Shown here piece after piece: positions 5,539-61,894 of a stretch of 64,000 nt of DNA. Location of the stretch: the sequence record PQ341120.1. The stretch is one strand, 5' to 3'. Both the position numbers and the translations under genes were made by a program. The notes beneath the pieces are model-generated. The model was not told the DNA's origin and did no database searches. It saw only the letters and a program-made list of their open reading frames with translations. Every line of letters starts with the position of its first letter. Position 1 is the stretch's first letter. This stretch comes from Escherichia phage EAWsc9.

Positions 5539-5679
5539 ATCCAATAATTTAAATAGTGTTAAAGTCGCTAATACACCTTGAGCTGTTGACTGCAGAAATA
5601 CTGAAGTTTCTCCAGTTATTAATGTTCCAACAAATAAAAATGACCAACAGAAAAAAGCTACGCCATGAACAAATTTCAT
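5527..5679 (-). CDS. Small hydrophobic protein (50 aa)
   Basis: MKFVHGVAFFCWSFLFVGTLITG...; SD GAGGAAAAT; ATGA overlap with next ORF. Confidence 0.4.
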   Translation of the reverse strand: MKFVHGVAFFCWSFLFVGTLITGETSVFLQSTAQGVLATLTLFKLLDKND

Positions 5680-5736
5680 ATTTTCCTCAAGGGCGTCCAA
5701 AGACGCCAGTTAATTTCAGATTATGACGATACCATT
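5676..5736. repeat. Repeat B copy 1 (61 nt, GGCGTC/GACGCC hairpin + SD + ATG)
   Basis: 60/61 identity to 5941..6001. Confidence 0.7.
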
Positions 5737-5789
5737 ACAGCGCTACAGGCAGCAAGGGCTAACGAGTAGCCCAAGATTTTCTTAATCAT
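5721..5789 (-). CDS. 22-aa peptide with lipobox-like LAAC (MIKKILGYSLALAACSAVMVSS)
   Basis: Shares first 14 codons with ORF 5394..5534; ATGA overlap with upstream ORF. Confidence 0.2.
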   Translation of the reverse strand: MIKKILGYSLALAACSAVMVSS

Positions 5790-5793
5790 TTTT
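5748..5793. repeat. Repeat A copy 2
   Basis: Identical to 5493..5538. Confidence 0.7.
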
Positions 5794-5944
5794 TCACGTA
5801 CCGTGCCAGACTTACAATTCCAGAAATAACCCATGCAATAAACATCGCGCCCATGAAAAATGTGCTTGGAGTCCAGACTCCCAAAAAGAAGCAGACTGAA
5901 CAAACCACGGCAATAATAAGTTCAATAAAAGCCAGAATAATCAT
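5786..5944 (-). CDS. Small hydrophobic protein (52 aa)
   Basis: MIILAFIELIIAVVCSVCFFLGVW...; SD GAGGAAAAT; replaces track ORF 5721..5903 in another frame. Confidence 0.4.
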   Translation of the reverse strand: MIILAFIELIIAVVCSVCFFLGVWTPSTFFMGAMFIAWVISGIVSLARYVKK

Positions 5945-6001
5945 ATTTTCCTCAAGGGCGTCCAAAGACGCCAGTTAATTTCAGATTATGACGATGCCAT
6001 T
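5941..6001. repeat. Repeat B copy 2
   Basis: 60/61 identity to 5676..5736. Confidence 0.7.
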
Positions 6002-6033
6002 GCATCACGTGTTCATTATGGAAATTACTCATA

Positions 6034-6480
6034 TTAATAGCTCTGCAGAATGAATTTAAAGTTATCAGCAAGCATGCGATTCATTTCTGAAAGGGTCTGG
6101 CAATCAGAACTATGCGAGCGAGTGAACGCCATTGCAATTTGACCTTTACCATAACCAGTTGTCAGAGGTTTCATTTTAGAAACTGGGACAAACAGGACTT
6201 CATAGATAACCCCATTGTTCGCCATTGTGCGAGACAGTTGAGAACGTTGTTTGCGGATGTGACTTAATACAGTGTCAAACCCTTGTTGTGAACGTTGGTT
6301 ACCAACATAAAAACGTGCAGCAACAATACGTGATTCGCCTTCACCTTTAACCACGAAATAAAAACCTGGTTGAGTGATAGCTTCTTTAGTCGGACGCCCG
6401 AGATAATTACCATTATGGATGTAAGCAACAGTGGTAGCGCCAGCATTCAGTACGTCACGACGGGTCATGTAAGTAGACAT
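6034..6480 (-). CDS. ndd: Nucleoid disruption protein Ndd
   Basis: 148 aa; PGFYFVVKG...[14 protein letters not shown]...[11 protein letters not shown]...[12 protein letters not shown] matches my recollection of T4 Ndd; position between 52 and denB. Confidence 0.65.
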
Positions 6481-6524
6481 ATTAATTTCCTCAGTAAGTT
6501 AAAGTTTTGTGCTCCAGTGGGGTC

Positions 6525-6553
6525 ATTATACTCTGACCCCAAGAGTTTGTACA
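6525..6553 (-). promoter_or_regulatory. Early promoter stem-loop cassette upstream of ndd
   Basis: TGTACA-17-TATAAT with GGGGTCA/TGACCCC inverted repeat around the -10; 44-nt block identical to 17730..17773. Confidence 0.5.
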
Positions 6554-6901
6554 CTATTTTTGAAGTTGTTCTAAAATAAATCCGCTCGTATAAAAGGAAG
6601 CATTATACACCTTATTCAGCGGGGTCAAAGCGCGCTTATAGGTATTACGCAATTCTTTGATAACATTTTCATAACTCACGTAGTAAGCACTATGGTAGTA
6701 ACCTGGCTCCATACTCATACGAAATTTAATGAACCGATAAAAGCCTGTTTCCGGGTCTTGGACGAAAACGAAATCAGCACTCGTCATAACTTTTGGATGT
6801 ACGTCAGGAATCATACTTTGATTGAATGCCTCCGACGCCTCCTGAAGGCTAATCTGTTTAAAGAACATAACTTTAGCATTACCAAAAAATACTTTAGACA
6901 T
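6554..6901 (-). CDS. Hypothetical protein (115 aa)
   Basis: ORF with SD-like GGGGAAAA. Confidence 0.55.
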   Translation of the reverse strand: MSKVFFGNAKVMFFKQISLQEASEAFNQSMIPDVHPKVMTSADFVFVQDPETGFYRFIKFRMSMEPGYYHSAYYVSYENVIKELRNTYKRALTPLNKVYNASFYTSGFILEQLQK

Positions 6902-6928
6902 AATATTTTCCCCAGTAAGTAAACCTTT

Positions 6929-7075
6929 TTAAAGAACTTCTTCAATCTGAATGTACTTGCTGTAACCTTCCTCAATGAGGATATCCCGCGCACAATTTGC
7001 GCTAATATACGCATTAAAACTAAGAGTTTTAATCACTTTACCATGAAGCTTTACTTTATAAATTCTATTGTCCAT
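6929..7075 (-). CDS. Hypothetical protein (48 aa)
   Basis: SD GAGGAAAAT before ATG. Confidence 0.35.
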   Translation of the reverse strand: MDNRIYKVKLHGKVIKTLSFNAYISANCARDILIEEGYSKYIQIEEVL

Positions 7076-7090
7076 AATATTTTCCTCAGT

Positions 7091-7336
7091 TTATTCAGGG
7101 TCTACCGCGCCATCCCACAAGTCAACTTCTTCTGATGATTCCATCAGTTCATCAACCGTGAAGCACTCAGTATTATTTTCAATTGCAAAACGCTTCTGAT
7201 AAAAAGGATAATCCAAACAGTTTTCAGTGCGCACAGGGCGCTCGCTGTTATCCATTAAAGGCGAAATGCGAATCAGTTGTTGACCATTACCCAGGACAAA
7301 TTTTTCACCAACTGCAATGTCTTTAAAAAGTTTCAT
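7091..7336 (-). CDS. Hypothetical protein (81 aa)
   Basis: ORF, SD GGAGC. Confidence 0.55.
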   Translation of the reverse strand: MKLFKDIAVGEKFVLGNGQQLIRISPLMDNSERPVRTENCLDYPFYQKRFAIENNTECFTVDELMESSEEVDLWDGAVDPE

Positions 7337-7539
7337 TGCTTAGCTCCATTCCAAATTACATCAACAACAGACTTCAAACCATTATCCTGGATTTGTGTGA
7401 ACACTTCAGCAGCAATCCAGAGCTGGAAACCAATCATTGCAATGGCACCAATGAAAATCAGGATAATCATCGCCACAATAAACTTGAACATAAAGTCAAA
7501 GCGACGATTGGATTTCTGAAATTGTGAATTGTAATTCAT
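7333..7539 (-). CDS. Small membrane protein (68 aa)
   Basis: Internal ATG with SD GAGGA; hydrophobic core. Confidence 0.45.
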   Translation of the reverse strand: MNYNSQFQKSNRRFDFMFKFIVAMIILIFIGAIAMIGFQLWIAAEVFTQIQDNGLKSVVDVIWNGAKQ

Positions 7540-7549
7540 AATATTATCC

Positions 7550-7666
7550 TCAAAAGAAATAGTTAAAGTAAACACGTACATGGTCAATCATAAAAACAAT
7601 TGGGAAAATGCTCAGGACAACAAACAGTACAAACATGTTCCAAATGGCTTTAAGTAACTTTTTCAT
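7550..7666 (-). CDS. Small membrane peptide (38 aa)
   Basis: MKKLLKAIWNMFVLFVVLSIFPIVF...; downstream of promoter cassette. Confidence 0.3.
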   Translation of the reverse strand: MKKLLKAIWNMFVLFVVLSIFPIVFMIDHVRVYFNYFF

Positions 7667-7692
7667 AATCATCTCCAGTAGTTGATAGGTTC

Positions 7693-7720
7693 ATTATACT
7701 ACAACCACTGGAGATGTACA
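7693..7720 (-). promoter_or_regulatory. Early promoter (TGTACA-16-TATAAT)
   Basis: -35/-10 pattern on minus strand followed by conserved leader. Confidence 0.45.
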
Positions 7721-7811
7721 CTCTTTTACGCAAGTTTCATTAATAATAAACTAAAACAAACGCAAATTACTGGGATACACAACATCCAGATAAGACACCA
7801 GGTTTTGCTGC

Positions 7812-8078
7812 TCAAAATATCACCTCTTTGATTTCAATCAGACCCCTGTGCAATGCGGTGCGAAGGTCATAAAGAATATCTATGCCATCAACATTATCCA
7901 GTTTTCCATCAATAAGCTTTTTTAAATCTTCCTTTGATGCAACCAGCGGGCGAAGAAATTTACATTCAGAAAGAGACAATTCTGTAGTAACATCATCGCC
8001 ATCGCCTGACGCATCATACATAGCGGCAACAACCATACCTGTAACTTTGTGCTTGGCGTAATATAATTTGATATCCAT
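7812..8078 (-). CDS. Hypothetical protein (88 aa)
   Basis: ATG at 8078 with SD GAGGAAAA. Confidence 0.5.
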   Translation of the reverse strand: MDIKLYYAKHKVTGMVVAAMYDASGDGDDVTTELSLSECKFLRPLVASKEDLKKLIDGKLDNVDGIDILYDLRTALHRGLIEIKEVIF

Positions 8079-8088
8079 TCTGTTTTCC

Positions 8089-8244
8089 TCACGCATAACG
8101 ATTGTATGTATTTTTACGACAAGCGTAAAATTGACGCTCAGTAACTGCAAAACTTTTTCCGCGCTGTTGCATTAATTTAAAAAATTCAGTGATATCGCCA
8201 TTAACTTCAAGATATAAAGTCATTGCATATTGAGCAGGTTTCAT
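8089..8244 (-). CDS. Hypothetical protein (51 aa)
   Basis: ATG at 8244 with SD GGAGAATAAA, downstream of promoter cassette. Confidence 0.4.
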   Translation of the reverse strand: MKPAQYAMTLYLEVNGDITEFFKLMQQRGKSFAVTERQFYACRKNTYNRYA

Positions 8245-8283
8245 TTTATTCTCCAGGTTTGTTTGGTAACTCAGTATGGAATC

Positions 8284-8312
8284 ATTATACATAGACTCCA
8301 TACTGATGTACA
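8284..8312 (-). promoter_or_regulatory. Early promoter cassette (TGTACA-17-TATAAT + CCATACTGAGTTACC leader)
   Basis: Repeated family member. Confidence 0.5.
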
Positions 8313-8323
8313 CTACTTTTTAA

Positions 8324-8599
8324 TTAATTGTGCATTTGTTCTTTAACTTCTTTATATGCGCCAACTGCATTCACGACCCCAGTAAAATCTGCAGTCCCAC
8401 GATAGAGATAGAAAGCGATTTCAGTCAGGTGGTAGACTTCAAATTCTGAAAGATAAATGATAACGTCATAATAGGCAACTTGCCCCTGGACTTCGTTGAA
8501 TACTACATCAAAAATTTCATGGGTTGGAAAATTGATGTTGTTGTTTTTGAGTGCTTGAATAAGAATTTGTTTGATGTTATTAGTAGTAACGTGTTCCAT
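8324..8599 (-). CDS. Hypothetical protein (91 aa)
   Basis: ATG at 8599 with SD GAGGA. Confidence 0.5.
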   Translation of the reverse strand: MEHVTTNNIKQILIQALKNNNINFPTHEIFDVVFNEVQGQVAYYDVIIYLSEFEVYHLTEIAFYLYRGTADFTGVVNAVGAYKEVKEQMHN

Positions 8600-8646
8600 G
8601 ATAATGTCCTCATTTGTTGGTGTGAGGACATTATTACATGGTTGGT

Positions 8647-9240
8647 TCAGCTTGTAAACCGGTGATAGGGAAATTTTTCTTCTGAACAAGAACGGAGGTA
8701 CCAGCCATCCCCTTGTGACTTCTGCACAAGACCAGACTCAGGAACGAAAGCGCCAGGTCCAGCAAGGAATTTTGGTTTAAATCTATAACCTTTGATAGTC
8801 TCTTTTACATTAAACATAATCATAAGGTCAGCAAGCTTGTGCTGCATAAAAGGACCAAGATTGACCCCGTAACCATGCGGATAATCACCATGGCTGCCAG
8901 TGTGCACGGATATCCATTTGGAGTCAGACTGATGAGTTTTGACTTCGATTCTTACCCCTTCTTTCGAAACTACATCAAATGCAAAGGAATAAGGATTATC
9001 GTAATCTTCATCGCCACCACATAAAAAACCGGAGGTCCATTTAGCAATAGCTTGTTCAGCCATTGTAGCCACCATACATCTTTGCATGACTTGCTCACGG
9101 TCCTGGCCAGGGTCTTTACGCAATGAATACCTGGCAGTGTCTACAATCTTTTGCAGGGATTCGGGGGTTAAGTCTTCTTTTGTATAAAGAAAGGAGGGCA
9201 TCTTTTTCAGATGCTCCCATGTTTTACTCTTCTGAATCAT
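8647..9240 (-). CDS. denB: Endonuclease IV (DenB)-position protein
   Basis: 197 aa ORF between ndd and rIIB where T4 carries denB (185 aa); sequence itself not verified. Confidence 0.45.
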   Translation of the reverse strand: MIQKSKTWEHLKKMPSFLYTKEDLTPESLQKIVDTARYSLRKDPGQDREQVMQRCMVATMAEQAIAKWTSGFLCGGDEDYDNPYSFAFDVVSKEGVRIEVKTHQSDSKWISVHTGSHGDYPHGYGVNLGPFMQHKLADLMIMFNVKETIKGYRFKPKFLAGPGAFVPESGLVQKSQGDGWYLRSCSEEKFPYHRFTS

Positions 9241-9244
9241 AATG

Positions 9245-9565
9245 TCATCCTTTAAAATACATATCGGATTTTTCGATAATATCTAAAGAATTTTGCTCAG
9301 CTTGCTCTTGATAATCGCTGCCAATATAAACTTTGTCCACATGAACGACGCCATAATAAATTCTGGCACTTTCGGCTAGTGTAGAATGGTCCAGACTACG
9401 AAGTTCTTCTTTCGTTGCAAGAATGATGTCCCTCGCATATAACCGCCCAGTTGACTTTGTAGAAGCATAATGACAATCCACACAATAAACAATATCCGCA
9501 ACATGATTACCATGCAACCGGATTTCGTTAATAGATTCATCGCCAACGTTCATATAGTTAATCAT
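9245..9565 (-). CDS. Hypothetical protein (106 aa)
   Basis: ORF with SD GGTGA. Confidence 0.5.
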   Translation of the reverse strand: MINYMNVGDESINEIRLHGNHVADIVYCVDCHYASTKSTGRLYARDIILATKEELRSLDHSTLAESARIYYGVVHVDKVYIGSDYQEQAEQNSLDIIEKSDMYFKG

Positions 9566-9568
9566 AAT

Positions 9569-9766
9569 TTATTCACCAAAATAAGAGATACGGATTGCCA
9601 GTACATGAGCATATGCGCCCATCGCATCCAGTTGGGCAATCAAAAGACCTTGTTGACGGATATCAAGAGTTTCAAAAACTCCACCCTTAATAAACTCTTC
9701 AAGAGCATTAATTTTCAAAACCAGCTGGTCATATTCTTCAACTACACGTGCTTGGAAACCTAACAT
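9569..9766 (-). CDS. Hypothetical protein (65 aa)
   Basis: ORF with SD GAGG, follows hairpin. Confidence 0.45.
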   Translation of the reverse strand: MLGFQARVVEEYDQLVLKINALEEFIKGGVFETLDIRQQGLLIAQLDAMGAYAHVLAIRISYFGE

Positions 9767-9778
9767 AAAGCCTCATTA

Positions 9779-9792
9779 GGGGCCGAAGCCCC
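9779..9792 (-). promoter_or_regulatory. UUCG-tetraloop hairpin (GGGGC-UUCG-GCCCC on transcript) downstream of rIIB
   Basis: Perfect 5-bp GC stem with CGAA/UUCG loop. Confidence 0.5.
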
Positions 9793-9799
9793 GATTAAT

Positions 9800-10771
9800 T
9801 TAGAATTGTTCAGTTACATCATCAAGAACCAGGTAACCACAAACCCTCATCTTACTATCCCCATAATCCACCGGGATACTTACAACATCGCGCGGGTGAA
9901 CTTTACAGGATACGATGCGCCCATCACCATGACCAAAACCACTTCCGATATAACCTTTAGAGCAAACGTGCAACCCAGTTGAACAGGTTTGTTCGTCATT
10001 GTCATTCACACGAGAGCGCGGCATTTTAACATATTGGCCAGGGCTGTTGTCGAATGTATTTGAGTGACAATCTTTGTATGTTGCACGAACCATTTTCCAT
10101 GCGATGAAATGACCGTCTTCGGTGATTTCGATATCGTTAGCAACCAGGAAGTCAAACAAACGCTGTACTGCTTTTTCACTCGGGTTCTCAAGGAGATTCT
10201 CAAGGAATGGCAGATAGAATTCAAAGTCTTCACCATTTTGCATTGAATCAATGATACGAGTAACCAGGCCGGAGCGCAGTTCAATTCCCTGATAGAACAG
10301 ACTACCACCTTCAATACGCACATCACCTTTCACATATTTTTGCACCGCAGCTTTGATTGAGATAAACTCGATAGCATCGTCAAAACGAGATTCTTTGAGT
10401 GCCTGAATAATATCATTAAAGTGTTTATGGTCTTTTGTTGCGTTCCAGACTGTACGGCCTTCAGTGATGGAAACGAATTTGCTTGATGCGTTCCATACGA
10501 TTTCTGGGCGGCTTCCGCCGATTGTATCAGTAACCGGGACTTCAACCGTTACTGTCACCGGAGCATTAATCGCCACACCAACGGCTGCTTTCAGTGATGC
10601 AGAAATGGTTTTAGCTAATTTTGATTCTTTATCATTTTTCAAAACGCGGCGAATGGTGTCAACGGACACAGCAAAATATTCTGCCAATTCAGGCTGGGTA
10701 TAATTGCCCGTTGAATACATCTGGACCACATCAGCTTGTTCGGCTTTAGACATACATTTGATATTAAACAT
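9800..10771 (-). CDS. rIIB: rIIB protein
   Basis: 323 aa directly downstream of rIIA, size and position as T4 rIIB (312 aa). Confidence 0.8.
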   Translation of the reverse strand: MFNIKCMSKAEQADVVQMYSTGNYTQPELAEYFAVSVDTIRRVLKNDKESKLAKTISASLKAAVGVAINAPVTVTVEVPVTDTIGGSRPEIVWNASSKFVSITEGRTVWNATKDHKHFNDIIQALKESRFDDAIEFISIKAAVQKYVKGDVRIEGGSLFYQGIELRSGLVTRIIDSMQNGEDFEFYLPFLENLLENPSEKAVQRLFDFLVANDIEITEDGHFIAWKMVRATYKDCHSNTFDNSPGQYVKMPRSRVNDNDEQTCSTGLHVCSKGYIGSGFGHGDGRIVSCKVHPRDVVSIPVDYGDSKMRVCGYLVLDDVTEQF

Positions 10772-10772
10772 A

Positions 10773-13007
10773 TTATTCCTTATTGGCCGCTTCCACGGCC
10801 TTCATGATTTGAGCAACGTTCTGTACTTGTTCAGTTGACATGGCGTTACGGTTATATAAAAAGTGTGAAACAATCGGGTGATTCTTTTCAAATTCAAAAA
10901 CCATTTTATCGCTTGTTACCGAAGCGTTTTTGGTCAGGTCGTCATAAATCTTATTACAAAGGACCAGAGTTTCCTGCATGGTCTTATCAACTGTTCCACT
11001 GTTATATGCGTTATAAGCAAAGAACTTATTGAACTGCATTAATTCGGCATAGTCAGTATTCACATCTTTCTGAACATCTTTTGCATAAAAATACTTGAAC
11101 ATAAAATTCAGTTCTGCATATTCAGACAGGATAGGAATATAATAACGCGAACGGCTTGAAGCGGCAATGTACTGGTCCGCATCAACCGCATCAATCAATT
11201 CCACATAACGATTGACTGCAGCTTCAATCAGACAATCACACTGCGCCAGCTTGGTAATCTTTTTCTGAAGCTGTGGACGAATAACACAGAATTCATTGAT
11301 TTCCAACAGGTTTGCCAGTTTACACAATGTCTGGGTCCCGAAGGTCGTGGTGCCATATTCTTGATTCAACGGGGAAATGCTACTGCGGTTAATGAATACA
11401 GCATAACCATCGATTTCCTCTGCATCAGCTGCACATGTAAATTCTTCAACAGACTGCCATTTGCCATTAGTTTTAGTCCAACGAATCAATGATGGAGTCT
11501 TTGACTTAACGCGCGCTTTCGGGTCAGCAACCGGAATCCAGTCTTTTACAAGGGCGGTCAGTTCAGACGTACGATAGATATTAACTGTATCGCCTTTAAA
11601 TCGTTCTTGAAGTTGAACCATCAGACGTGTTTGAATTTCGCTGGTTGGGTCAACGAACAATAGACTACTACCTTGTACAGTCGGGACTTTACCAGATGCT
11701 TTGAGCTTTTTGGCTTTCGCGCTGGTGTCATACAGCATTGAACTGATGCCCCGAATCATCGCAATTCGCCCTTTAGCATCGTCAATAACAATGTTCAAGG
11801 TATTATTCTGAATACCAAACATGCTCGTCAGGCTTGCAGTATTCGTGTTCGAGCTTGAGTTACGCAGACGTTTCAGACGGGTAGTGCTATAGATATCATA
11901 GACAACCCCGGCATTAATAAGGTCTTTGTCCAGCTCGAACATTTCATACATCTGGTTAAAGGTCAATTGCGATTTCGTAAATTTCGTTTCAGCATTACGA
12001 GCTTTCAGAAAATTACGAGCTTCATAACTCAGACTCTGTAATTCGCGATACGTGTGGCGGATACATTCTGATTCCTGCCATTTCTTACAATCATCTTCCA
12101 TGACTTTCTTATCAAGGGATTCAATACGTTCAACGATATTTGCGACCGTACGTTTATCCAGTGATAATGCTTCGCGAGAAGGTGCAATATCCAACGAACC
12201 CATCGGGAACTTAATAAAGACAACATCATTTTTGGCAGTCATCCAGGTTTTCTTTGTATAACCGTCAGCAATTGGATAAACAATTCCACCGTAAATTGCA
12301 TAAAGACCATAACGTTCTGGGCTGCTATAATCAATACGCTCTGGAGCATAATAATCATCAAATTCCGGGAAATAATTAATTTCGCCTACGCCTTGTACTT
12401 CAGCCAGTCCAGCAAATGGACGCATGATATATGCAATCTCGTGGCGGAACTTACCAAAATCATTACTATCAACCGGGACAACAACTTCAATCCCTGTGCG
12501 GTCGCCAGGTTTCATTGGTTCGCTAAAGGTTGGCTTAATCTGTGGACCATCACCATCCATATAAGCGACATAACCATTAACTTGACCATCATGATACGAA
12601 ATCAGGCTAAACGTCTCTGTATAACTGAACGGAGATTTAGAGCCCAAACCAAAGCCGCCAATAAAATCATTAGATTCAGCCTTGGATGATGCAAAGAAAC
12701 TGTTATACAGACCTGGAGTGTTTTCATCACCACGAATCTGGAAATCACTCATACCTGGACCAAAGTCACGACACACAAAACGTGGGTCCAGTTCACCAGG
12801 AGCCTGAACAATGAATTTATCCTGACAGCCATTGAGCATATGAGCATCAATCATATTGGTAATCAGCTCACGAACAACCGCGCGCACCTTATTTGTATAA
12901 AGGTCACTGGTCAGAATCTTAAACACCTTTGGAGATGCCTGGATTGTGAATGCTGATGCCTTGGCACCATTACCAAGGATTGTTTCCTTTTCAGTTTCTA
13001 AAATCAT
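10773..13007 (-). CDS. rIIA: rIIA protein (GHKL ATPase-like N-terminus)
   Basis: 744 aa; N-terminal ELITNMIDA...DFGPGM...GGFGLGSKS motifs of GHKL fold; between rIIB and topoisomerase 39 as in T4. Confidence 0.85.
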   Translation of the reverse strand: MILETEKETILGNGAKASAFTIQASPKVFKILTSDLYTNKVRAVVRELITNMIDAHMLNGCQDKFIVQAPGELDPRFVCRDFGPGMSDFQIRGDENTPGLYNSFFASSKAESNDFIGGFGLGSKSPFSYTETFSLISYHDGQVNGYVAYMDGDGPQIKPTFSEPMKPGDRTGIEVVVPVDSNDFGKFRHEIAYIMRPFAGLAEVQGVGEINYFPEFDDYYAPERIDYSSPERYGLYAIYGGIVYPIADGYTKKTWMTAKNDVVFIKFPMGSLDIAPSREALSLDKRTVANIVERIESLDKKVMEDDCKKWQESECIRHTYRELQSLSYEARNFLKARNAETKFTKSQLTFNQMYEMFELDKDLINAGVVYDIYSTTRLKRLRNSSSNTNTASLTSMFGIQNNTLNIVIDDAKGRIAMIRGISSMLYDTSAKAKKLKASGKVPTVQGSSLLFVDPTSEIQTRLMVQLQERFKGDTVNIYRTSELTALVKDWIPVADPKARVKSKTPSLIRWTKTNGKWQSVEEFTCAADAEEIDGYAVFINRSSISPLNQEYGTTTFGTQTLCKLANLLEINEFCVIRPQLQKKITKLAQCDCLIEAAVNRYVELIDAVDADQYIAASSRSRYYIPILSEYAELNFMFKYFYAKDVQKDVNTDYAELMQFNKFFAYNAYNSGTVDKTMQETLVLCNKIYDDLTKNASVTSDKMVFEFEKNHPIVSHFLYNRNAMSTEQVQNVAQIMKAVEAANKE

Positions 13008-58322: not shown

Positions 58323-59069
58323 ATGATTTTATCCGGAAGAACTGTTGATGAACTCAATGAAAAAGTCCAGGCTGCCTTGGCTAATAATTGGTATTTGTTT
58401 GGTTCTACTATGGTGTTGCCGAATACCCCTACAGATAGCAAAGAGCGTTTTTTCCAAACTATGTCCAGCTCGGAAACTCAGATACCGGGCCCGCCTGGGC
58501 CAAAAGGAGACCCGGGTGTACCAGGACCAAAAGGAGACCCAGGCGGGGATGGAAAGTCTTCTTATCAGATATGGCTTGACTTGGGAAATACAGGAACTGT
58601 TGATGATTTTTTAACTGATACAGCAGGAAAGAGGGAAAAATCCGAGGTGTTTTGGAGTGGTATAAACGTTCTATTAACTAATGGTACGACTTCAAACATA
58701 ATTAGTGTTTTAAAGGGGATTCCACCGACTGCAGGGACTCTATCTCCGTTTTTTAGAACCACTGATGATAAGTTGTGGCCATATAACCAAGACAGAAGCC
58801 TAATGTTTAAACTCAACCTTATTGGTAATTTTGCAGGAGCCTCGCAAGCTCGAAGTATAACATTAAATTTCGTTGGAACCAACGGAAACACTTATATACA
58901 GAATCGTCCGGAAAATGCTACAGATATTTTGTCTTTTACAACGTTCTTTAGCATTGATAAAGATGGGGCAATGGCAACCAATGGTACAGCTATAACTGTT
59001 ATGCCAAATGGCGGCAACTTTACAATAACCTCTGCATTGTTAGTAGCCGAACAAACAGTGACTTCATAA
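58323..59069 (+). CDS. Collagen-repeat fibre-like protein (248 aa), plus strand
   Basis: Strong SD AAAGGAGAAAG; Gly-X-Y run GPPGPKGDPGVPGPKGDPGGDG followed by SSYQIWLDLGNTGTVDDFL, the motif that follows collagen repeats in many phage fibre proteins; Asn/Thr-rich C-terminal domain. Confidence 0.65.
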   Translation: MILSGRTVDELNEKVQAALANNWYLFGSTMVLPNTPTDSKERFFQTMSSSETQIPGPPGPKGDPGVPGPKGDPGGDGKSSYQIWLDLGNTGTVDDFLTDTAGKREKSEVFWSGINVLLTNGTTSNIISVLKGIPPTAGTLSPFFRTTDDKLWPYNQDRSLMFKLNLIGNFAGASQARSITLNFVGTNGNTYIQNRPENATDILSFTTFFSIDKDGAMATNGTAITVMPNGGNFTITSALLVAEQTVTS

Positions 59070-59077
59070 ACAAAAAA

Positions 59078-59091
59078 GGGCCATCCGGCCC
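59078..59091 (-). terminator. Hairpin (GGGCC-loop-GGCCC) + U-run terminating the minus-strand NTase operon
   Basis: Stem-loop followed by UUUUUUG on minus transcript; sits between convergent genes. Confidence 0.5.
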
Positions 59092-59280
59092 TTAGATTGC
59101 ACTCCAAAAATTATGGAATCTTATAGTATTGATAGCCCAGTTAACAAACCCGCGAGTTTGTTTGGGAGTTGGTTTGCATATGTACTTATTGTTGATTCGT
59201 CTGCCAGTTTCCCGACAGACTGCTTCGAGATACCAGCGCCGACCTTTATTAGGTCTTCCGTATGATAAGAAGACCTTCAT
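59092..59280 (-). CDS. Small basic Cys-containing protein (62 aa)
   Basis: ATG 8 nt after NTase stop; MKVFLSYGRPNKGRRWYLEAVCRETGRRINNKYICKP. Confidence 0.45.
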   Translation of the reverse strand: MKVFLSYGRPNKGRRWYLEAVCRETGRRINNKYICKPTPKQTRGFVNWAINTIRFHNFWSAI

Positions 59281-59287
59281 TTCTTCA

Positions 59288-60298
59288 TTAACGATAATAG
59301 GAATTGTGGTTGTCAAGATATACCTCTTCAACAAACTTGTCCCAGAACTTCATGTCTACCTTATCAGGCATACCATTCTTAGCAGCCTGGATGGCCAGAA
59401 CTTCAACTAAATCGACAGTATCTTCAAGAAGTTCTTGAACTTCTTTAAATGGCAATTCACCAGCTTTAATCAGCTTAATGATAGAGGCTTCACGCAATGG
59501 GAATACCAAGTCACCCGTTTGGTAGATTTCCATCAATTGATACCCTGCACGATAAGCATGGCTCAGTGCTTTCCAATCAATACCTTCGTTAGCTTCTGCT
59601 TTACGAGCACGTTCACCATATTCGGCGTCGAGTTTATTCAGAGATTGCTTGAGCTCGATTAATGACAGAGTAGTTTGGTATTTACGACCGAGGACAGTAT
59701 AGAACGTTTGAGGACCTGTTTTCTCATGGTTATGAAATACCCATTCGCAGAACTCGTTTTCAGGGAGTCTGTGTTTGATATCTTCTACCTTAGTACGTCG
59801 TTGCTTAGCGGAACCATCTTCTTGATAGTCAACCCATTGTTCAGGAATCTGGTTAACAATTTCCAATACACCACGCAGTGCAGCCAATCGAGAACCTTTA
59901 ACACCATATTTGGAAGCTTGCTTACGGACGTACCCCAAATAGGCTTTCATGTTAGTTGTATAGAACCGTGAACGGTTGTCCTGAATAAACTTCCATACAT
60001 CTGGTAAATCGGATTTGACTATCAGGTCAGCCGGGGTGTGAATCATATCCAGAGCAACGGTTTCGCCATCAGCCGCCAGTTTAAAGAAATATTTCAGACT
60101 ATAAAGTTCATGGTCAACATCATCTTTTGTATTTTTGGTAGCCGTGTTATTCGTGTTCAGGTTGGTATGGTTCATCGCGGTTCCGAGCAGGATATCTCGC
60201 GGATGAGGAACAAAGATTTCTTTAAAATCGACATCAGATTCCGGGGTACTTGTTCCATAAAGATGGCTACCGAAGTAGCCTTTCATAATAGCTTTCAT
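59288..60298 (-). CDS. Putative Pol-beta-superfamily nucleotidyltransferase (336 aa)
   Basis: SD GAGGACAAAGA; N-terminus FGSHLYGTSTPESDVDF fits the hG[GS]-x9-13-[DE]h[DE]h NTase signature; start overlaps upstream stop (ATGA). Confidence 0.6.
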   Translation of the reverse strand: MKAIMKGYFGSHLYGTSTPESDVDFKEIFVPHPRDILLGTAMNHTNLNTNNTATKNTKDDVDHELYSLKYFFKLAADGETVALDMIHTPADLIVKSDLPDVWKFIQDNRSRFYTTNMKAYLGYVRKQASKYGVKGSRLAALRGVLEIVNQIPEQWVDYQEDGSAKQRRTKVEDIKHRLPENEFCEWVFHNHEKTGPQTFYTVLGRKYQTTLSLIELKQSLNKLDAEYGERARKAEANEGIDWKALSHAYRAGYQLMEIYQTGDLVFPLREASIIKLIKAGELPFKEVQELLEDTVDLVEVLAIQAAKNGMPDKVDMKFWDKFVEEVYLDNHNSYYR

Positions 60299-60747
60299 TC
60301 TTTGTCCTCGAAGTGGATTACTGGGCACATCTTAGATTTACGAGCTTTGATATATTGAATGAAAACATTTTCTTTAATTTCCTTTCCTTCACGTTTAGCT
60401 TTAATGCGTTCCCATTCTTTTTCTTCTTTACGTAAATCGTACCAGGCCCATAAATTCATTAGACCATACATTAGACCAAATGCTACCGTCAGAATAAGAG
60501 CCAGTGTAGCTAGTCCTAAAATAAACCCTAAGCCTAAACCGACCGGGGTGCTTAATACAAAGAAATGCTCTAATACACCTGCACCCGCGACAGTTAATCC
60601 AAAAACCATACTACCGATAAAAACGGCACAAACAAAACAAGCCCAAACCATTTTCCAGAAATAAGCACACAAAGAGTGTGGACGAGAATGACGGTCATAA
60701 AAACGGTCGTGGAAACGAGCGTGCCATGAGTTTGTATTGATAATCAT
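60295..60747 (-). CDS. Membrane protein (150 aa), His/Arg-rich N-terminus, ~3 TM helices
   Basis: SD AAGGAAA; hydrophobic segments VWACFVCAVFIGSMVFGLTVAGAGV, FFVLSTPVGLGLGFILGLATLALILTVAFGLMYGL. Confidence 0.6.
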   Translation of the reverse strand: MIINTNSWHARFHDRFYDRHSRPHSLCAYFWKMVWACFVCAVFIGSMVFGLTVAGAGVLEHFFVLSTPVGLGLGFILGLATLALILTVAFGLMYGLMNLWAWYDLRKEEKEWERIKAKREGKEIKENVFIQYIKARKSKMCPVIHFEDKE

Positions 60748-60758
60748 AATAATTTTCC

Positions 60759-61319
60759 TTAAGAGTTCATAGTTGGGATAACAGAGTTCAGATAAGAGAC
60801 TAAAACTTTTAGCTCGTCCTTAGTAAATACCACTTCACTTTCGCCGTCATGTCTTTGGACAATAGATAACAGGTCACGGCCGTTATGTTGATGCACAGTT
60901 AATTCAGTATTATAATCTAGTTCCTCTTCATCGCCTTCAAACGTTTCACTAGAGCGAATCAGTGCATCTTGTCCCGGAACTTTCCATTCAACTTCCGGTT
61001 TACATTCTTCCTGGAAGAGTTTGAAAATACAATCAAAGAATTTATCAGAATCGCTAATGCTCAGGCATTCTATACCATTTTCCAGATTAAACCCATTTTC
61101 ATTTTTATAGATATAAGCGTATAGCTCATCGTTAATATCGACAGGAGCACTATTACGTCCATTGAGATAGTCAGCTCTATCCAAAACCATTAAATCATAA
61201 AGTGGTTTAATATCTTGGATAGTCAGTACGATTTTATCGTCTTCTTGGCAAAGCTCGATTGCGTTATTAACCACTTCAGCAGTCAGTTCGCCAAACAATT
61301 CAGTTGTTTCAATAATCAT
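60759..61319 (-). CDS. Hypothetical strongly acidic protein (186 aa)
   Basis: ORF; high Asp/Glu content. Confidence 0.55.
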   Translation of the reverse strand: MIIETTELFGELTAEVVNNAIELCQEDDKIVLTIQDIKPLYDLMVLDRADYLNGRNSAPVDINDELYAYIYKNENGFNLENGIECLSISDSDKFFDCIFKLFQEECKPEVEWKVPGQDALIRSSETFEGDEEELDYNTELTVHQHNGRDLLSIVQRHDGESEVVFTKDELKVLVSYLNSVIPTMNS

Positions 61320-61636: not shown

Positions 61637-61894
61637 TCATCTCATGCTCCTGTGCCAACAATTTCTTGGTTCACGTTTAAAAATTTCATCATGCATTGAT
61701 TGACAACCAACACAATATATCACACCTTTAATCGCTTGTCTCCGCGCTTCAGGAATTTTTTCGTCGCAGTCAAAACAGAATTCAGCAGACTCCCTTTCAA
61801 CTGCAACTTGTGCTCGTGCGTGAACGATAGCGGCTTGGACAACCGCTTCCATCTCTAACTGTTCAGCACCATCTTTTGCAAATCCAACAGCCAT
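61637..61894 (-). CDS. TraR/DksA-family C4 zinc-finger protein (85 aa)
   Basis: CFDC-x17-CVGC with IPEARRQA between, the TraR/DksA zinc-finger signature. Confidence 0.6.
   Translation of the reverse strand: MAVGFAKDGAEQLEMEAVVQAAIVHARAQVAVERESAEFCFDCDEKIPEARRQAIKGVIYCVGCQSMHDEIFKREPRNCWHRSMR

Follow-up and report, generated by a model that had tools for sequence, protein, structure and literature searches.

NrdC.11 of Escherichia phage EAWsc9, an RlaP-family nucleotidyltransferase with a probable role in RNA repair and an exchangeable membrane-protein neighbour

RlaP is the name that Burroughs and Aravind reportedly coined for a family of nucleotidyltransferases (NTases), after its association with RNA ligases. 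The RlaP proteins of Pseudomonas fluorescens and P. aeruginosa (PfRlaP and PaRlaP) add one to two nucleoside monophosphates (NMPs) to RNA 3'-OH ends, leave DNA and protein unmodified, and prefer Mn2+ (PMC12776372). Given a mimic of cleaved tRNA, these Pseudomonas enzymes show a preference for its broken end, and RlaP raised the aminoacylation of a repaired tRNA that lacked a nucleotide; nucleoside triphosphate (NTP) specificity was low, several RNA classes were labelled in vitro, and RlaP was proposed to act as an antidote to nucleotide-excising nucleases such as RloC (PMC12776372). Iyer et al. made the same prediction for jumbo phages, where the distribution of RlaP mirrors that of RNA ligases (PMC7824862). 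A December 2025 preprint assigned NrdC.11 of phage T4 to the RlaP family (PF10127), in cluster 5 of the preprint's sequence similarity network (SSN) (PMC12776372). Here we describe an NrdC.11 ortholog encoded on the minus strand of a 64,000-nucleotide (nt) stretch of Escherichia phage EAWsc9 (PQ341120.1; this whole stretch is the window), where its gene stands between one for a small membrane protein and one for a small basic protein of the DUF7279 family.

The NTase open reading frame (ORF) occupies 59288..60298 on the minus strand, with its ATG at 60298 and its stop at 59288-59290, and encodes 336 amino acids (aa). BLASTP aligned it with T4 NrdC.11 (NP_049709) over its full length and with no gaps, 272 of the 336 residues being identical (81%), and the protein is 100% identical to one from Yersinia phage vB_YenM_P8. 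The Pfam RlaP model PF10127 matched at 47.2 bits (cutoff 23; E 3e-12), aligning with residues 9-133 only, and phrog_388, annotated as “nucleotidyltransferase”, matched at E 1.2e-131. PF10127 was precomputed for all of the 120 homologs listed, the homologous family at E <= 0.001 comprises 3,248 clusters at 50% identity, and NrdC.11 is present in 1,511 phage records, nearly all of them T4-like. By these sequence comparisons the 336-aa protein is the ortholog of T4 nrdC.11 and a member of the RlaP family. The initial annotation of this DNA had recognised in it no named T4 gene, a claim that proved wrong because the identity to NrdC.11 is 81% and gap-free over 336 residues, in a protein of the same length. 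The gene already has a name among T4-type genes and belongs to a family that has been described, and the locus does not represent a new signalling or toxin module. The RefSeq label of T4 nrdC.11 is nucleotidyltransferase. NrdC.11 orthologs are called “thioredoxin” in many GenBank records and “HNH homing endonuclease” in one; the thioredoxin label is an annotation error, and the names look like a bleed from the neighbours nrdC and mobD. In the vB_YenM_P8 record the mobD.1-like gene is labelled “thymidine kinase”.

The N-terminus of the NTase reads MKAIMKGYFGSHLYGTSTPESDVDF and contains the motif FGSHLYGTSTPESDVDF. Conservation was assessed in an alignment of 58 diverse homologs with 34-82% identity to the query. 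G10, S11, G15, S21, D22, D24, Y131, K243, H247, R250 and P267 were invariant (58/58), and D60 (56/58), D62 (54/58, plus three Glu) and D84 were near-invariant. The catalytic signature of Pol-beta NTases comprises hG[GS], DxD and a third acidic residue. The catalytic motif here consists of G10-S11 and D22-x-D24, the GS...DxD residues from which a Pol-beta-type NTase had initially been proposed, and their invariance upholds that proposal, as does the predicted fold. An AlphaFold2 (AF2) model, made from an alignment with the T4 row left out, was confident (predicted local distance difference test, pLDDT, 93.8; predicted template modelling score, pTM, 0.82) and consists of an alpha/beta Pol-beta NTase core (residues 1-95) and a helical domain (helices 99-149 and 213-335), with a beta-rich insert at ~154-208. 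The conserved residues K243, H247 and R250 are within the C-terminal helical domain. The initial annotation had left the third catalytic carboxylate to structure prediction; in the model the third metal ligand is probably D62 (or D60), on a predicted strand (61-67) beside the DxD strand. The insert, at 59675-59840 in the window, is confidently predicted, lies between helical segments and falls outside the Pfam RlaP alignment; the model indicates that it could be a clade-specific substrate-binding subdomain. Single-sequence and 58-sequence profile searches for solved structures gave nothing meaningful. The crystal structure of PfRlaP has an N-terminal NTase domain and a C-terminal helical domain, with a terminal helix that packs back. 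Structural comparison of the model placed HalB nearest among the solved structures searched, a set that does not contain PfRlaP, with KNTase, DrrA and GlnE also among its fold neighbours.

The functions listed in the initial annotation included an RNA-tailing or repair activity, which of those named is best favoured by the evidence. Our analysis indicates that the locus is probably best explained as an NrdC.11 ortholog functioning as an RNA-repair NTase, next to an exchangeable membrane-protein gene, with a mechanism modelled on that of its family. In such a mechanism, G10-S11, D22, D24 and the third carboxylate (D62 or D60) would hold two divalent metals and the NTP, and NrdC.11 would append one to two untemplated nucleotides to a broken RNA 3'-OH. 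A tRNA half shortened by an RloC-type host anticodon nuclease would regain length, and a polynucleotide kinase and an RNA ligase of the phage itself would then seal the tRNA.

NrdC.11-type NTases were found together with an RNA ligase in three viral or metagenomic contigs (L085, L072 and L068), whose NTases are full-length homologs at 39-44% identity. In L085, a short contig, the NTase is followed 38 nt downstream by an RNA ligase (PF09414), and in L068 both Rnl1 (PF09511) and a Metallophos phosphoesterase are less than 4 kb from it. The uncultivated viral contig L072 encodes at 6001-11079 the NTase, then an HD phosphohydrolase and a PHA02142/RNA ligase, a prim-pol, an NT5C nucleotidase and, further along, an AAA_33 kinase, a set that from its sequence forms a compact, putative RNA-repair cassette. 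The homologs of L085 and of another short contig, L086, both looked high in GC, and the genomic context in L086 was uninformative. In a T4-like lineage with NTases of 50-53% identity (L040, L043, L044, L046, L049, L053 and L058, at ~5620-6001), the membrane gene's place is taken by a neighbour of RNA-chaperone type, a “Phage ProQ C-terminal-like” protein (PF24203, 1.2e-13) that overlaps the NTase start. Phage-record counts per genus are nearly equal for NrdC.11 and Rnl1.

Several observations weigh against a role in RNA repair. The biochemistry comes from the Pseudomonas enzymes only, and not from phage NrdC.11. The phage clade is ~90 aa longer than the Pfam model, which it matches at 9-133 only, and contains the insert at ~154-208; because of this greater length, the beta insert and the partial Pfam match, its substrate choice could differ from that of the Pseudomonas enzymes. 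The nearest solved fold belongs to HalB, a maker of DNA oligomers. The equal genus counts may only show that NrdC.11 and Rnl1 are both common T4-like genes, tblastn did not find T4 Rnl1, Rnl2 or Pnk in the 64-kb window, and in T4-like genomes neither pseT nor rnlA nor rnlB lies next to nrdC.11. Laboratory T4 tolerates a deletion from nrdC.11 through mobD.3 (PMC9825161), so the phage can do without the gene; this is compatible with a conditional role in counter-defence and is no proof of one. The idea that the small downstream protein binds nucleic acid derives from weak fold hits (E >= 0.2, template modelling (TM) score ~0.4).

The gene that precedes the NTase gene, at 60295..60747 on the minus strand, encodes a 150-aa protein that matched phrog_944 (E 3.1e-56; 931 phage records) and no Pfam family above cutoff. 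Its hydropathy profile has two long hydrophobic stretches, ~26-60 and 62-103, and its sequence marks it as an inner-membrane protein. Homologs aligned at 26-36% identity have a variable hydrophobic core between conserved terminal motifs, INxNSWH...P.SLC.YFWK at the N-terminus and KARKxKxCPxIxF at the C-terminus, both of them cytoplasmic-looking, and W8, H9, C27 and C141 are invariant in the family. Because the invariant residues sit in the termini while the transmembrane core varies freely, the alignment suggests that the conserved function of this family lies in a small domain made up of both termini, on one side of the membrane.

A neighbourhood survey of 78 NTase-bearing viral loci showed how loosely the two genes are linked. 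A homolog of the membrane protein abuts the NTase in 12 of the 78, lies at most 6 kb away but behind other ORFs in 28, and was undetected in 38. The T4 locus has none, with mobD in the slot and no homolog nearby, and in the Aeromonas phages CC2 and AS-szw both genes are present more than 70 kb apart. In a similarity-independent check of the 78 loci, a transmembrane protein was directly upstream of the NTase in the closest lineages only. In the window the two ORFs share an ATGA stop/start overlap (60295..60298, minus strand, read from the sequence), in which the TGA of the membrane ORF overlaps the ATG of the NTase, and a GAGGA Shine-Dalgarno sequence for the NTase lies 6 nt upstream of that ATG, at 60305-60309. 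ATGA is found at the NTase start in 34 of the 78 loci, after many different upstream genes (the membrane gene in 8 of these 34), and gene overlaps are frequent throughout the region; this one is nothing more than normal gene packing. As an independent and exchangeable syntenic neighbour in the hyperplastic T4-type region, the membrane protein is no obligate partner of the NTase. Of the initial annotation's account of this pair, the membrane protein itself stands, with its two hydrophobic stretches. The description of the genes as a tight unit fails if a conserved module is meant, as the membrane gene is absent from T4, abuts the NTase in a minority of loci and is unlinked in the Aeromonas phages. 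Since the membrane protein is a changeable neighbour and not a partner, the finding is largely ordinary.

The reading closest to RNA repair retains an anti-defence or RNA-modifying enzyme and gives it another acceptor, so that it would tail or mark RNAs of host or phage for decay, repair tRNA 3'-CCA ends, or nucleotidylate small molecules or proteins. Room for a different acceptor is left by the phage clade's own insert (~154-208) and by family biochemistry that comes from Pseudomonas alone. The low NTP specificity and the several RNA classes labelled in vitro (PMC12776372) are in keeping with this idea, as are the RNA-binding-type neighbours in some lineages (ProQ-C-like, DUF7279) and the presence of small-molecule and protein adenylyltransferases (KNTase, DrrA, GlnE) among the fold neighbours. 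We nevertheless think it rather unlikely: PfRlaP left protein and DNA unmodified, the association with RNA-ligase and end-healing genes that L068, L072 and L085 show points to repair and not to decay, and the NTase has no sequence resemblance to class II CCA-adding enzymes. The initial annotation had drawn attention to cyclic-nucleotide signalling and to NTase toxin-antitoxin pairs, both of which would give the neighbouring genes a part. A Hailong-like pair, in which an oligonucleotide signal made by the NTase gates the membrane protein (for example in superinfection exclusion or lysis timing), could draw on the HalB fold hit and on the membrane neighbour. HalB primes synthesis on a C-terminal tyrosine. 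The NTase ends in Tyr-Tyr, but this is not conserved in its family, and HalB was not reached by single-sequence or profile search, nor did PADLOC return a significant hit. T4 keeps its 81% identical NTase without the membrane gene, whose homolog abuts the NTase in only 12/78 loci and is more than 70 kb away in CC2 and AS-szw, and the 150-aa protein has no recognisable ligand-binding domain. Hailong HalB (9dbh/9dbj), known here from a review and from Protein Data Bank (PDB) titles, differs further in sequence (14% identity), in length (217 aa, against 336 aa here) and in making DNA oligomers for bacterial defence, and no HalA-like partner is present here. We consider such a pair very improbable; Hailong membership was rejected for want of a sequence link, of a conserved C-terminal Tyr and of a conserved membrane partner.

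A toxin-antitoxin or abortive-infection module (MNT/HEPN, AbiEii or MenT-like), in which the membrane protein or the small basic protein would be the cognate partner, seems to us more improbable still. The genes are of small size and lie close together side by side, and the MntA antitoxin model (E 0.012) and the PADLOC model PDC-S09 (E 0.004) both hit residues 8-25, but these hits are far under their thresholds (15.5 bits for MntA, against a cutoff of 60) and cover a generic motif only. The NTase has 336 aa and a conserved, predicted helical domain at its C-terminus, of the kind typical of RlaP, compared with ~100-150 aa in MNT proteins; its neighbours contain no HEPN or other toxin domain, a syntenic ortholog is present in ~1,500 lytic T4-like phage genomes, and T4 has neither of the proposed partners. 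Nor did searches for a CBASS/CD-NTase system give a hit in Pfam, NCBIfam or PADLOC, and the neighbours lack SAVED, STING, TIR and patatin domains. The fold hits of the NTase are HalB and KNTase-type proteins, not CD-NTases. Kanamycin NTase, ANT(4') and similar two-domain NTases (1kny, 6un8, 3c18) modify antibiotics and resemble the NTase in the motif only, with no resistance context here. The signalling and toxin-antitoxin layouts initially put forward therefore found no backing in a significant PADLOC or NCBIfam hit, in a HEPN or effector-type partner, or in cGAS/DncV-like fold hits. The defence-system and toxin-antitoxin readings were rejected, their PADLOC and NCBIfam hits being sub-threshold and confined to the 17-residue GS motif.

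The small ORF on the 3' side of the NTase, at 59092..59316 on the minus strand, encodes 74 aa if it starts at TTG 59316, as is probable, or 62 aa from ATG 59280. In the 62-aa form (ATG 59280 to stop 59092-59094) the product has an isoelectric point (pI) of 11 and two Cys. It matched DUF7279 (PF23945) at 29.0 bits (cutoff 24.5; E 1e-6) and phrog_8921 at E 1.8e-33, over profile positions 12-74 of 74; PF23945 is carried by 9 of 9 homolog clusters, and 211 phage records contain the protein. Wherever it was located, in 15 of 15 loci, the ORF lies directly 3' of the NTase, and this holds for the most divergent homolog, from Serratia phage 4S (39% identity). A hidden Markov model (HMM) search downstream of distant NTases gave no remote DUF7279 homologs beyond the 15 known loci. 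Of the NTase's neighbours, the DUF7279 protein alone is strictly linked to it, and in this lies the residual, mildly new part of the finding. The ORF is unannotated in many records, including those of SP18, QL01, vB_EcoM_RZ and Serratia phage 4S, yet it is conserved at the protein level; copies lie at 59092-59316 in the window, at 4009-4194 in L001 and at 2501-2686 in L083.

The start of this gene is probably TTG 59316, within the NTase gene, giving a 74-aa protein. GAGG at 59323-59326 precedes the TTG, and the 74-aa form overlaps the NTase 3' end by 29 nt. A TTG with a GAGG-type Shine-Dalgarno sequence was found in 12 of 12 loci checked that have the ORF, versus 11 of 19 that do not, and the internal ATG has given way to another codon in 4 of 11 loci and in protein clusters P0346 and P0348. 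The 12 residues gained at the N-terminus can be aligned between homologs and are modelled as a beta-strand. We favour the longer form because the TTG is conserved, the internal ATG is replaced, and the extra residues align and are predicted to form a strand. The small basic Cys-containing protein first described as 62 aa from ATG 59280 thus keeps its composition, pI 11 with two Cys, but more probably begins at the TTG. The spacer given after the NTase stop, 8 nt, is in fact 7 nt (59281-59287) up to ATG 59280.

AF2 predicted for the small protein, from a multiple sequence alignment of 9 sequences, four beta-strands and a C-terminal helix (pLDDT 84.7). Foldseek returned weak hits (best E 0.22, TM 0.38-0.47, 11-14% identity); PC4 or Pur-alpha homologs made up 4 of the top 7, and rudivirus ORF131 and an Hsp70 substrate-binding domain were also among the hits. 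With PC4, Pur-alpha and Whirly-like proteins, which bind single-stranded nucleic acids (for example the phage T5 PC4 homolog, 4bg7), the model shares its small size, a strongly basic character and an antiparallel sheet of four strands with a helix after it, but DUF7279 has no sequence relation to them and the fold match is weak. Judging from this model, the DUF7279 protein may be a single-stranded-RNA-binding accessory factor. A more specific proposal, which we hold to be doubtful, makes the 74-aa protein, in those lineages that have it, a dedicated subunit of the phage RlaP, a single-strand RNA clamp that would steer nucleotide addition to damaged RNA such as tRNA halves. It is raised because the start of the small gene lies within the NTase gene, whose direct 3' neighbour it is wherever it was located, and because the product is basic (pI ~11) with a PC4/Pur-like predicted fold. 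If the proposal is true, NrdC.11 and DUF7279 would constitute a two-component phage RNA-mending enzyme, so far undescribed. The DUF7279 protein is a concrete candidate partner for when the enzyme is assayed.

The three genes are part of the nrdC-tk early region, with a gene order as in SP18 and T4. Yersinia phage vB_YenM_P8 matches the region at 99.8% identity, and a T4-like coliphage group including ECML-359, DK-13, vB_EcoM_RZ and SP18 does so at 85-95%. As the initial annotation had described, the sequence contains three ORFs on the minus strand, the ATGA overlap and a terminator made up of a hairpin and a T-run. The intrinsic-terminator-like hairpin with its T-run occupies 59066..59093 on the minus strand, as located by a hairpin scan and in the sequence. 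Its hairpin (59093-59076, AAGGGCC-GGAT-GGCCCTT) has seven pairs, five of them G-C, and a loop of 4, and is followed by TTTTGTTTAT; it begins within the stop codon of the small ORF and points towards the 3' end of a convergent gene on the plus strand. In the 4.5 kb scanned it ranks first among the terminator-like sites, whose number was not in itself significant (6 found versus 3.6 +/- 2.1 expected). A single early transcript would carry all three genes and end at this terminator (59093-59066).

The convergent gene (58323-59069, plus strand) encodes 248 aa with collagen-like G-x-y repeats and an Sf6-type tail-needle-knob domain (PF16532, 2.6e-32; phrog_1030), and only a subset of close relatives carry it. 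Homologs at 46-56% identity adjoin nrdC.11 on the opposite strand in the distant T4-like loci L032, L039, L043 and L044. It is an odd structural-type gene for an early region. On the other side of the trio, the gene upstream of the membrane ORF (60759-61319) is mobD.1/y05I-like, with T4_y05I_N/C matches of 1.8e-36 and 1e-19, and two genes upstream of it, at 61637-61894 on the minus strand, is an ORF for an 85-aa DksA/TraR-type C4 zinc-finger protein (PF01258, 5.7e-9).

Set beside T4, the EAWsc9 locus has an NrdC.11 of the same 336 aa in the same slot, flanked by the mobD.1/y05I-like gene on one side and by the nrdC.x genes on the other. T4 differs in having the HNH homing endonuclease MobD directly upstream of nrdC.11 in place of the membrane gene, and in lacking the small DUF7279 ORF, nrdC.10 following after a 114-nt gap. 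From the RlaP proteins whose activity has been tested, which fall in SSN cluster 1a, T4 NrdC.11 is separated by its place in cluster 5, and in T4-like phages NrdC.11 lies outside any rtcB/rtcA operon. With the RlaP family at large, the NTase shares a Pol-beta core that bears GS and three conserved acidic residues; a helical domain is predicted C-terminal to this core, and RNA ligases accompany the NrdC.11-type clade in L068, L072 and L085. If NrdC.11, a gene carried by ~1,500 sequenced phages, restores nucleotides excised by anticodon nucleases of the RloC type, it would provide the third activity hitherto missing from the classic T4 counter-defence by tRNA repair, alongside Pnk and Rnl1.

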